NCBI GenBank assembly: GCA_964443845.1
Contig: CAYUFA010000001.1
Coordinates: 47,025 to 111,024 of the forward strand
Length of the DNA: 64,000 nt
DNA from: an uncultured Ectothiorhodospiraceae bacterium
GTDB taxonomy: Bacteria; Pseudomonadota; Gammaproteobacteria; UBA9214
Direction: 5' to 3'
The notes under the pieces: model-generated
What the model was told of the DNA's origin: nothing
Database searches by the model: none
Seen by the model: the letters and a program-made list of their open reading frames with translations, nothing else
Shown: in pieces, positions 4,207 to 9,342 of the stretch
How the letters are laid out: the number at the start of each line of letters is the position of its first letter
Position numbering within the stretch: position 1 is the stretch's first letter
Made by a program: the position numbers and the translations under genes

Positions 4207-4686
4207 GTGGTGTATTCAATCGACAAGCTGATTTCCGAGACCCGGCGGCTGGCGGCAGAATATCGCCGTTCCACCGGCCAGGGTTTGCCGGTGTCCGGCG
4301 AAATCGCGCGCCACGACGCCGCCCGGTTGCTGAACCTGACCCTGTGCGAACCGGGCACGGCCGGGGTGGATGCGCTCGGTACCGGCCAACGCGCCGGCCA
4401 ACGCATCCAGATCAAGGCCCGCGTCATGATGCGGGACCACAAGCCCGGTGCACGCCTCGGCCAGCTCAACCTGAGCGGCGACTGGAACATGCTGCTGCTG
4501 GTCGTGCTGGATGAAGCGTACGAAGTCAGCGAGATCTACGAGGCATCCCGCGACGAGCTGGCCGCCGCCATCGAGGAGGGTGTCAGCAGCAACCGGGCGC
4601 GGCGCGGCGCCCTGTCCGTCGCCAAGTTCCGCAATCTCAGCTGGCTGGTCTGGACGCGCGAATCCGGCCTGGAGCCCGGCCGCTGA
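4207..4686 (+). CDS. Hypothetical protein (159 aa, GTG start); first gene of the three-gene insert in the flagellar locus
   Basis: Non-repetitive, protein-like sequence co-directional with the next two genes. I recognise no family from memory. Confidence 0.5.
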
Positions 4687-4791
4687 ATCACTACTGGCAC
4701 GCATCTTGCTGTTGATTCTCACGGAATCGCAGCGCCTGCCGGACGGGACGACCGGCGGGCTGCACAACCCAATTTCCAAGGAACCGGAAAC

Positions 4792-6879: not shown

Positions 6880-6912
6880 CCGAACACCGAACCCGAACGG
6901 GAAACCGCCAAC

Positions 6913-9342
6913 ATGACACAAGTGAATACCGCACGCCTTCCGGAACTGCACAAGCTGCTTGCCGACGGCAACAAGCATGGGCTCCGCTACCTGTCACTGG
7001 ACTGCTTCGATACCGTCCTCTGGCGCAACGTGGCACAGCCGACCGACGTGTTCTTCCGCATGCAGCACCGGCCTGCCGCCCGGGAACTCGGCCTGACCGG
7101 TCTGCAACGCATCCGGATCGAGTCCGAGGCACGCACCATCGCCAGGGTCGATCACGGCCGCAACGAAGTGACCCTGGAACAGATCTACCGGACGGGCTAC
7201 CCGTCCCTGGACGGTGCCACCATCGACCGCCTGGTCCGCGACGAACTGGAAAGCGAGCAGGAAGCGTGCTTTGCGTACCACCCGATCGTGGAACTGATGC
7301 AATGCGCGCTGCGCAGCGGACTGCGCCTCGTCATCGTGTCCGACACCTATCTCGAGGAACCGTTACTGCGTGAGCTGCTGGCACACCACCTCCCGCCGGA
7401 CGTGATGGCTGGCATCCAGCGCATCTTCGTGTCGTGCGCACACGGGGTCAGCAAGGCCGATGGCCTGTTCCGCAACGTGCTCGCCCGGCTGGGCTGCGCA
7501 CCCGGGGAAATCCTGCACCTCGGCGACAACCCGGTTGCCGACGTGGATGCGCCCCGGGCACTGGGTCTGCATTCCGTACACTTCGTGCAGTACGGCAAGG
7601 AGGTGGGCCGGATGCTGCAGATGATCAGCAACACCACCTCGATTCTCAACCCGGCCGCGCGCGCCAGTGCCGCCATGCCATCCCCGTTCCATGCCATCCT
7701 GGCCGGCCGCGAGATCGACGCCGACATTCCGGAAGTGATGCTCGGTTATTGCGCGGCGGGACCGTTGCTGTATGCGTTTGCCGACTACCTGCGGCAGCAT
7801 GCGGACAGCGCCACGGCCGCAGGGCGCCCGGCGAAATACCTGTTCCTGATGCGTGACGGCTATCTGCCGCAACAGGCCTTCGATGCCGTCGCGGGTGAGC
7901 ATGGAGCACGCAGCCATGCGGTCGAGATCAGCCGCTTCGTGTCCTACGCCTGCAGTTTCCGCAGCAGCGCCGATATCGACCGCTACCTGGCACTCATGGC
8001 CTCCGACCGGCTGGAGTCGATGGCCCGCCAGCTGTTGCTGCCGGAACACACCGCCAGCCGCATCCTCGGCAAGGCCGCGCAGGCCGGTAACCGCTTCGAG
8101 ACTTTCTGCAGGCTGGTACGCCAGCCGGGCACCGTGAAGCAGATCCTCGCCAGCTCCGCGGCATTCCGCGCACGTTTCTACCGCTACCTGGAACGCACCA
8201 TCGACCTGCAGGCCGGCGACCGCCTGGTGTTTGTGGATCTCGGCTACAGCGGCACGGCCCAGACCTGCCTGCAGCCGGTGCTCGAAGACGAGCGGGCAGT
8301 CAGCGTGGAGGGGCTCTACCTGCTGCTCAAGGCAACCCCCAGCTGGACGCAGAGCCGCGCCGGGCTGATCGACCCGGCGCTGGCGGGCGAAGCCGCGGTG
8401 AACAGCCTGGTGCCGTACGTTGCCGCCCTGGAGATGATCTGCACCAACGATGCCGGCAGCGTGATCGACTACACGGCCGACGGGGAATCCGTGCGCAAGG
8501 CACCCGATATCAGCCCGTTGCAACAGCGCCGCGTGCGCGACATCCAGCACCACTGCCTGGAATTCGTCCGCGACGCGGAACAGTTCCGGCTCGGCACCGG
8601 CAATGTCTGCGCCGCCGGGGAGATGCGGCTGGCCGCCCTCGGGGCGCTTGGCCGCATGACCTTCTTCCCGTCCCTGCAGGAAGTCCGCTGCATGCAGAAT
8701 TTCTATCTCGATGTGAACCTCAACACCGACATTACCGTGTCATTGTTCGATATCGAACATGCCGCACACGGCATGCGCCGGATGGGGCTGTTCCATGCAC
8801 TCAACGAGCAACGCATGAACATCCCCACGGAACTGCGCTACCACAGCCTGGAATCAGCGCTTTCACTGCTGGTACAGCACCGATTCCAGCAGGACTACAG
8901 CTTCGACGATTTTTCCCTCAAGCGCGAGCGGGTCACCGTCATACTGGTCCGCGGCAATGAGCAATCGGTCATCGAAGTCATGGCCTATCCAGCCCACGAC
9001 GGGTTCTACACACTCCTCATTCCGGTGGGTGACCTGAGCTATGACGTCGGTATCCAGATCGGGACCCGCTACGAATGGCTGCAACTGGCGGATGTCAGCC
9101 TGCTGTCCGTGCAGGAACTGTTCGCCAGGAAAGACTTCAACTGCGACCGGCACGCCAGTGAAACCGACCTGCTGCCCGCCGTGCACTACGAACAGATCGA
9201 GGTCCTTGCGGACGGACTGCTGCACTGCAGGGATCGCAATGCGTTTTTCTTCGTCCCCATGCCACGCGACGGCCAGCGCGGGGAAAACATGGTGTGCCTG
9301 GTGAACTACCGGCCCATCGTGCAGCAGAAATCGGCGGCCTAG
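6913..9342 (+). CDS. 809-aa protein with an N-terminal HAD/FkbH-like hydrolase domain and a large uncharacterised C-terminal region; candidate flagellin-modification enzyme
   Basis: N-terminal LSLDCFDTVLWRN resembles the HAD-IIIC/FkbH DxDxTLW motif. Further features are VIVSDTY and GDNPVADVDAPRALG (HAD motif-III-like). A GGGAAAC RBS precedes the start. Confidence 0.6.
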   Translation: MTQVNTARLPELHKLLADGNKHGLRYLSLDCFDTVLWRNVAQPTDVFFRMQHRPAARELGLTGLQRIRIESEARTIARVDHGRNEVTLEQIYRTGYPSLDGATIDRLVRDELESEQEACFAYHPIVELMQCALRSGLRLVIVSDTYLEEPLLRELLAHHLPPDVMAGIQRIFVSCAHGVSKADGLFRNVLARLGCAPGEILHLGDNPVADVDAPRALGLHSVHFVQYGKEVGRMLQMISNTTSILNPAARASAAMPSPFHAILAGREIDADIPEVMLGYCAAGPLLYAFADYLRQHADSATAAGRPAKYLFLMRDGYLPQQAFDAVAGEHGARSHAVEISRFVSYACSFRSSADIDRYLALMASDRLESMARQLLLPEHTASRILGKAAQAGNRFETFCRLVRQPGTVKQILASSAAFRARFYRYLERTIDLQAGDRLVFVDLGYSGTAQTCLQPVLEDERAVSVEGLYLLLKATPSWTQSRAGLIDPALAGEAAVNSLVPYVAALEMICTNDAGSVIDYTADGESVRKAPDISPLQQRRVRDIQHHCLEFVRDAEQFRLGTGNVCAAGEMRLAALGALGRMTFFPSLQEVRCMQNFYLDVNLNTDITVSLFDIEHAAHGMRRMGLFHALNEQRMNIPTELRYHSLESALSLLVQHRFQQDYSFDDFSLKRERVTVILVRGNEQSVIEVMAYPAHDGFYTLLIPVGDLSYDVGIQIGTRYEWLQLADVSLLSVQELFARKDFNCDRHASETDLLPAVHYEQIEVLADGLLHCRDRNAFFFVPMPRDGQRGENMVCLVNYRPIVQQKSAA

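Follow-up and report, generated by a model that had tools for sequence, protein, structure and literature searches.

Bipartite β-ribofuranosyltransferases that depend on phosphoribosyl pyrophosphate (PRPP) serve O-antigen and capsule synthesis, and are represented by 7SHG from Thermobacillus composti and by CrpP-CriT of Haemophilus influenzae Bcs3 (8A0C) (PMC10299916, PMC11127046, PMC11231755). In these enzymes a phosphoribosyltransferase (PRTase)-like domain transfers ribofuranose-5-phosphate from PRPP and a fused HAD phosphatase strips the 5-phosphate (PMC10299916, PMC11127046, PMC11231755). Here we describe a relative of these enzymes, a protein of 809 amino acids (aa), encoded next to a 695-aa methyltransferase among the flagellar genes of a 64-kb window of ~65% GC (the whole stretch of DNA analysed, from contig CAYUFA010000001.1 of an uncultured Ectothiorhodospiraceae bacterium). 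The reading we favour, and hold to be on balance probable, is that the two genes are a strain-variable, sigma-54-driven module of the flagellar regulon which carries out cytoplasmic transfer of (O-methyl)ribofuranose onto flagellin; within it, PRPP as donor, flagellin as acceptor, methylation of the sugar and control by sigma-54 are what we infer. The two genes are:

4792-6879, + strand: gene for a 695-aa three-domain S-adenosylmethionine (SAM) methyltransferase
6913-9342, + strand: gene for an 809-aa predicted PRPP-dependent ribofuranosyltransferase

Flagellin glycosylation islands, as found in Pseudomonas, Campylobacter/Helicobacter and Aeromonas, lie beside flagellin, cap and chaperone genes, are strain-variable and act in the cytoplasm prior to export. 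The glycans on flagellin influence motility and the stability of the filament, as well as recognition by phages and the immune system. To our knowledge, every flagellin glycan system described so far relies on sugars activated as nucleotides and on genes dedicated to their synthesis.

Family and active site of the 809-aa protein

Sequence, fold and active-site residues place the 809-aa protein in the superfamily of PRPP-dependent bipartite ribofuranosyltransferases, within which it forms a distinct subfamily. Its domains are:

6985-7647, + strand: HAD-type phosphoribose-phosphatase domain (aa ~25-245)
7720-8892, + strand: glycan-phosphoribosyltransferase-like domain (aa ~270-660)
8896-9339, + strand: family-specific beta domain (aa ~662-809)

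The N-terminal HAD domain gives a weak match in Pfam and is the only section of the protein with a Pfam model, whilst the best NCBIfam match is to a generic HAD-IA subfamily (30 bits) and the public annotation reads 'HAD family hydrolase / FMN phosphatase YigB'. A preliminary description of the window had called this N-terminus FkbH/HAD-like; the HAD part of that assignment is borne out by Pfam, and the FkbH-like identity is rejected, there being no FkbH model among the NCBIfam matches. With the single 809-aa sequence as query, a PDB search gave matches for the HAD part in 7SHG ('Ribofuranosyl transferase') and Bcs3. Full-length homologues are ~800-830 aa long, and the non-HAD two thirds of the protein gave 509 matches among 1.84 billion cluster representatives, nearly all of them 780-830 aa with the same architecture. 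When 47 family members were aligned (A1), the resulting profile found 7SHG at E 7.8e-24, with the two catalytic domains both inside the matched span (profile positions 39-604), and the part of Bcs3 made up of CrpP and CriT at E 5e-23. An AlphaFold model made from the A1 alignment (predicted local distance difference test, pLDDT, 92) gave Bcs3 (E 4.5e-19) and 7SHG (E 6e-17) in Foldseek, with the next match at 5e-7. The PRTase-like transferase domain, with its helical bundles, comes directly after the phosphatase. What had been described as some 550 aa of unknown sequence is, from the profile and the fold, this glycan-phosphoribosyltransferase-type domain together with the C-terminal beta domain, aa 662-809, for which no PDB chain or Pfam family was matched by sequence.

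The key catalytic residues of Bcs3 have been named, with D386 as the nucleophile (PMC10299916). In HMMER alignments D386 falls on D30 of the window protein, which is invariant in A1, and the D-x-F-D-T motif around it is also common to 7SHG; HAD motif I reads LSLDCFDT, with the first Asp alone kept. Residues S143, K181, D205 and D210, from HAD motifs II-IV, are likewise invariant in A1. Within the transferase domain, R679/D680 of Bcs3 (loop 1) correspond to R314/D315, S707/R708 (loop 2) to S340/R341, and the acid E818 (loop 3) to D442, all of them invariant in A1. D442 heads a D-L-G-Y-S-G-T loop which corresponds to the PRPP 5-phosphate-binding loop of Bcs3, and its glycine-rich part, G444-T448, is conserved, the Bcs3 counterpart being loop 821-825. 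The split acidic pair for ribose (D680 and E818 in Bcs3) is therefore present as D315 and D442, without exception in the 47 sequences.

These residues bear on another explanation, in which the 809-aa protein would be a phosphatase or hydrolase acting on a small molecule or on a regulatory motility phosphoprotein, with the middle domain an inactive scaffold. Such a role would agree with the public annotation and with the existence of a Pfam model for the HAD part alone, but the ribose- and phosphate-binding residues of CriT are invariant across the whole family, which is unexpected in a dead scaffold, and the HAD motif has the special D-x-F-D-T form of the 7SHG and Bcs3 ribose-5-phosphate phosphatases. 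We regard a phosphatase-only protein as very improbable.

The 695-aa methyltransferase

The AlphaFold model of the 695-aa protein (pLDDT 90) has three parts:

4792-5286, + strand: degenerate methyltransferase-like Rossmann domain (aa 1-165), from the profile and the AlphaFold2 model
5374-5976, + strand: class I methyltransferase core, predicted to be active (aa ~195-395)
6049-6861, + strand: helical TPR-like C-terminal domain ending in a long helix (aa ~420-690)

Pfam placed the class I core at aa 208-329 (E 1e-23), and the profile of aa 1-165 matched methyltransferases in the PDB at E 3e-6, in agreement with the AlphaFold2 model. The preliminary description of a class I core plus a second, degenerate methyltransferase-like region was therefore correct.

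Were this enzyme a protein methyltransferase of flagellin, a functional analogue of FliB, the 809-aa protein would have a separate role. We consider this quite unlikely, since the enzyme is a class I methyltransferase and not of the FliB family, and since the window flagellin has a single Lys, lying within the conserved N-terminal NSAKDDAAG motif, which argues against FliB-like lysine methylation. In other lineages, moreover, a small and unrelated Methyltransf_24 enzyme replaces the 695-aa type beside the 809-aa gene. This substitution ties the methylation step to the transferase, and the pairing of two unrelated methyltransferase types with the 809-aa family argues for a sugar, rather than a protein, as the methyl acceptor.

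Distribution and flagellar linkage

Relatives of the 809-aa protein turned up at 519 places when one genome was scanned for each species, and the best 80 loci were examined, 52 of them with full 10-kb flanks. Flagellar genes near these loci were sought by tblastn, using as queries flagellar proteins from the window and from annotated loci, and were present within 10 kb in at least 33 of the 52 full-flank loci. Since flagellar genes make up ~1-2% of a genome by our own estimate, this is a large enrichment. The flagellin gene fliC lay within 10 kb in 26 of the 80 loci. A Pfam scan of 144 immediate neighbours of the family identified Methyltransf_24 (18), the large methyltransferase (8), flagellin (11), FliA-type sigma factors (6), sigma-54 activators (4), FlaF (4) and MotB (3), so that flagellin is the commonest flagellar gene immediately adjacent to the family and a methyltransferase of one or other of the two unrelated types often directly adjoins it. 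Individual checks also found MotA and FliM/N as direct neighbours.

Both families occur together inside the flagellar clusters of distant gamma- and betaproteobacteria (loci L005, L010, L063, L067, L087, L088 and L096, the last from Massilia). Four layouts are:

L002, 809-aa homologue at 68% identity: layout as in the window
L005, 809-aa homologue at 54% identity: 809-aa homologue, then methyltransferase, beside flagellin genes
L010, 809-aa homologue at 34% identity: fliK-fliC-fliD-fliS-fliT on one side of the pair, fliA-flhA on the other
L096, cultured Massilia sp. TSP1-1-2, found via the methyltransferase (MTase): fliE-HAD791-MTase655-ycgR…fliK-fliT-fliS-fliD-fliC-fliC

In Aquicella siphonis, the 421-kb replicon (L011, LR699120.1) carries a flagellar cluster with the methyltransferase gene after fliA and two 820-aa paralogues a few kb away. 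Besides Massilia sp. TSP1-1-2 and Aquicella siphonis, the cultured carriers include Thermomonas haemolytica DSM 13605, Vulcaniibacterium thermophilum KCTC 32020, Noviherbaspirillum malthae CC-AFH3 and Sphingomonas trueperi.

A number of further arrangements were seen among the loci. The same Aquicella siphonis cluster also holds a KpsF-like SIS/CBS gene, and a third paralogue lies on the chromosome (L009, LR699119.1) beside genes for a UbiA-family prenyltransferase and a 2-hydroxyacid dehydrogenase. The 810-aa family is represented by two paralogues, in tandem or near each other, in L016 (8353-13210), L020 (7470-12223), L049 (275-5174) and L059/L060 (same contig), and such pairs hint at a multi-step or multi-site modification. 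In the metagenome-assembled genomes L021, L034 and L050 of Myxococcota (including Labilithrix sp.), homologues of fliC, fliD and fliS adjoin the 810-aa family gene, and L021 has a SIS/CBS gene near it; Myxococcota are usually described as non-flagellated.

Extent of the unit in the window

The remaining genes of the flagellar locus are:

636-2294, - strand: fliF
2327-2662, - strand: fliE
2699-~3715, - strand: sigma-54 activator, ~338 aa, AAA+ plus Fis-type helix-turn-helix (Pfam Sigma54_activat, E 1.7e-70, and HTH_8)
4207-4686, + strand: DUF6998 gene, 159 aa, a resident neighbour outside the module (Pfam)
4695-4709, + strand: sigma-54 (-24/-12) promoter-like site TGGCACGCATCTTGC (motif match)
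9480-9797, - strand: fliT
9804-~10238, - strand: fliS
10342-11703, - strand: fliD
11733-~12104, - strand: flaG
12231-13037, - strand: fliC, 268-aa flagellin, the proposed acceptor (translation and alignment)

This gene order, fliC-flaG-fliD-fliS-fliT…activator-fliE-fliF, is as first described, as are the three + strand open reading frames (ORFs) of 159, 695 and 809 aa between the sigma-54 activator and fliT, the coordinates of which agree with the ORF list. The GC content at third codon positions of the three ORFs is 0.82-0.86, a codon-position bias typical of coding sequence, and proteins identical to all three have been called in public assemblies.

The unit is a two-gene operon of ~4.8 kb, made up of the methyltransferase and 809-aa genes, which are separated by a gap of 33 nt; DUF6998 lies outside it. 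The 159-aa protein matches DUF6998 weakly (31 bits, cut-off 27), and its homologues, which fall into more than 100 clusters, show 60-90% identity. Three of the loci with a DUF6998 homologue are informative:

L092, 6001-6480: DUF6998 homologue
L094, 6001-6477: DUF6998 homologue
L097, 6001-6510: DUF6998 homologue

Two relatives, L092 and L094, keep the order activator-DUF6998-fliT-fliS-fliD-flaG-fliC; in them DUF6998 and fliT are direct neighbours and both genes of the pair are missing, whilst in L097 the homologue stands in a non-flagellar context, between a PBP1-type gene and a helicase gene. In the window DUF6998 is preceded by a sigma-70-like promoter of its own (4143-4170), and the sigma-54 site lies downstream of it. 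A three-gene unit, the 'three-gene insert' of the preliminary description, is rejected on these grounds: DUF6998 stays where the pair is missing, and the promoter layout separates it from the pair. The proposal of a flagellin-modification island fared better in its other parts, as the conserved flagellar link holds in the distant clusters and strain variability is evident from L092 and L094, in which the pair is missing. The insert had also been said to lie in place of fleSR, which does not hold, since the pair-less relatives have a single receiver-less activator at that position and no fleSR. In the window, too, the sigma-54 activator beside fliE (2699-3715, - strand) is without a receiver domain, and no fleS/fleR-type pair is present in the locus or in its close relatives.

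With regard to how the pair arrived, the DUF6998-fliT spacers of the relatives gave no useful alignment with the insert borders from which insertion scars could be read. The base composition of the insert is the same as that of its surroundings, and so gives no sign of recent transfer.

Other features of the surroundings were as follows. Divergent beside fliC is a gene for a protein with DnaJ and PilZ domains (13356-14093, + strand), the position of which is kept in L002, L092 and L094. The region 15840-19020 encodes a protein that combines a partial EAL domain with an HDOD domain, and then motA and motB; after motA/motB, on the other strand, come genes for glycogen phosphorylase and glucose-6-phosphate dehydrogenase (19110-23151). 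In L094, the flagellin ORF (9554-10360) breaks frame centrally, which reflects either an assembly error or a pseudogene.

Promoters and regulation

Within the 64-kb window TGGCAC-N5-TTGC is matched perfectly at a single site, TGGCACGCATCTTGC at 4695-4709, where 0.23 such matches would be expected in the whole window; the site lies 83 nt upstream of the methyltransferase ATG, past the DUF6998 stop codon. The closest genome, L002, also has a perfect sigma-54 site, 90 nt ahead of its orthologue of the methyltransferase gene. In 16 of 85 loci the 350 nt upstream of the family gene contain a sigma-54-like site with one mismatch or none, as against ~2.5 estimated from the background rate; most of these sites lie at 63-115 nt, and they are concentrated in Lysobacteraceae and Parasphingorhabdus. 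No sigma-28 promoter was found upstream of the pair. From these motif matches the pair is probably driven by sigma-54, and the adjacent, divergent receiver-less activator (2699-3715) could possibly regulate the promoter at 4695.

Two further elements were noted nearby. A one-mismatch sigma-54-like site, TGGCACCGGATATGC, lies on the - strand at 10300-10314 in the fliD-fliS gap, ~60 nt ahead of the start of fliS. In the interval between the 809-aa gene and fliT, which are convergent, a consensus scan identified no intrinsic terminator; the long GC-rich inverted repeat there (9364-9430) has a folding energy no better than that of shuffled sequences.

Flagellin as the candidate acceptor

In the mechanism that we propose, the central domain of the 809-aa protein would move ribofuranose-5-phosphate from PRPP to an acceptor hydroxyl, after which the N-terminal HAD domain would remove the 5-phosphate, with the extra C-terminal beta domain probably holding the acceptor. 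The 695-aa protein would then O-methylate the transferred sugar with SAM, possibly capping it. The most likely acceptor would be the 268-aa flagellin, either at Ser/Thr of its surface-exposed central segment (28% Ser+Thr) or at a sugar already there, and the modification would take place in the cytoplasm before export, giving an O-linked β-ribofuranose that is O-methylated. Neither the 695- nor the 809-aa protein has a hydrophobic segment suggestive of a membrane span or signal peptide, in keeping with enzymes that draw on the PRPP and SAM of the cytoplasm. No other glycosyltransferase and no nucleotide-sugar synthesis genes are present in the window out to 33 kb, as would suit a donor taken from housekeeping metabolism.

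Several observations weigh against this proposal. Two residues of Bcs3 that contact PRPP, S678 and R712, are not conserved, being Met and Tyr in the 809-aa protein, and the sigma-54 site of the window is a motif match. The large methyltransferase is immediately adjacent to the family gene in only about one in ten loci, and at least 19 of the 52 full-flank loci, many of them from Polyangiaceae and some from Coxiellaceae and Sphingomonadaceae, have no flagellar gene within 10 kb with the queries used, so that the family is not exclusively flagellar. Nor was a flagellin signature of the module found, since the centre of flagellin is rich in Ser/Thr whether or not the pair is present; the flagellin of a pair-less relative is 81% identical to that of the window and similarly rich in Ser/Thr. 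A priming glycosyltransferase is not visible at the window locus. Finally, the characterised relatives of the 809-aa protein put ribose on sugars or on ribitol in polysaccharides, and never on protein (PMC10299916, PMC11127046, PMC11231755).

In an alternative reading the pair would be regulated with the flagellum and have a target other than flagellin, either another exported flagellar protein (of the hook, cap or junction) or a glycan of the envelope that is made in step with motility. Glycans are the substrates of every known relative (PMC10299916, PMC11127046, PMC11231755), which would favour such a target, as would the variety of neighbours, which include FliA, MotA/MotB, FliM/N, FliE and FliK and not always fliC, and the presence, next to the family gene in some loci, of a gene for a GT2, a TPR protein or a KpsF-like SIS/CBS protein. 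We nevertheless judge it unlikely, because flagellin is the single most frequent flagellar neighbour, because there are no polysaccharide transporter, export or polymerase genes within 33 kb of the pair in the window and because both proteins look cytoplasmic.

Flagellin is the acceptor that we favour. A stronger version of the proposal, which we put forward as a tentative and rather doubtful one, is that this would be the first protein O-ribofuranosylation system, in which ribose would be put straight onto Ser/Thr of flagellin, needing neither a priming sugar nor a nucleotide-sugar pathway, and would be capped by the methyltransferase. If true, direct ribofuranosylation of Ser/Thr would be a widespread new class of minimal, two-gene flagellin glycosylation module. 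A PRPP-fed ribofuranose transferase would, if confirmed, add a new donor chemistry to protein glycosylation, and a recently discovered family of ribofuranosyltransferases would extend from polysaccharides to what is probably a protein substrate. The proposal would also explain a conserved pair that is mis-annotated as 'HAD hydrolase / UbiE-like methyltransferase' in many genomes, several of them from cultured strains. Searches of the literature for links between flagellin and ribofuranose, ribofuranosyltransferase, PRPP or pentose found nothing relevant, although the 2022 founding paper on the transferases might mention flagellar homologues.

Comparison with known systems

The best matches of the 809-aa protein in the PDB, by sequence as well as by fold, are 7SHG and Bcs3, with which it shares a HAD phosphatase followed by a PRTase-like transferase, the D-x-F-D-T motif, the acidic pair and the Ser-Arg phosphate binders. 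It differs from 7SHG in being ~160 residues longer through the addition of the C-terminal beta domain; in Bcs3, too, the transferase has a beta-rich domain after it, and there this domain binds the acceptor. The genetic setting is different as well, since enzymes of the 7SHG and Bcs3 type belong to polysaccharide loci (O-antigen, capsule or teichoic acid) and the 809-aa gene to a flagellar locus, where the partners of its family are methyltransferases rather than polymerising glycosyltransferases and ABC transporters.

For the methyltransferase, the nearest parallel is WbdD, the chain-terminating methyltransferase of O-antigen synthesis (PMC11231755). Like WbdD, the 695-aa protein is a methyltransferase with a long helical, coiled-coil-like C-terminal extension that is found alongside a glycosyltransferase; unlike WbdD, it is without a kinase domain, and no sequence relationship between the two is detectable. 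A WbdD-like capping role for the 695-aa protein is accordingly a speculation.

In comparison with the flagellin glycosylation islands, transferases of the Maf, FgtA/Fgt1, FlmG and GmaR types and nucleotide-sugar genes were not found with Pfam and NCBIfam, and the preliminary description was right in seeing no match to the classical Maf/Pse/Leg islands. In other respects the pair resembles them, lying beside flagellar genes, varying between close relatives and being predicted to act in the cytoplasm before export. Because its predicted donor, PRPP, is a housekeeping metabolite, the whole 'island' can consist of two genes.

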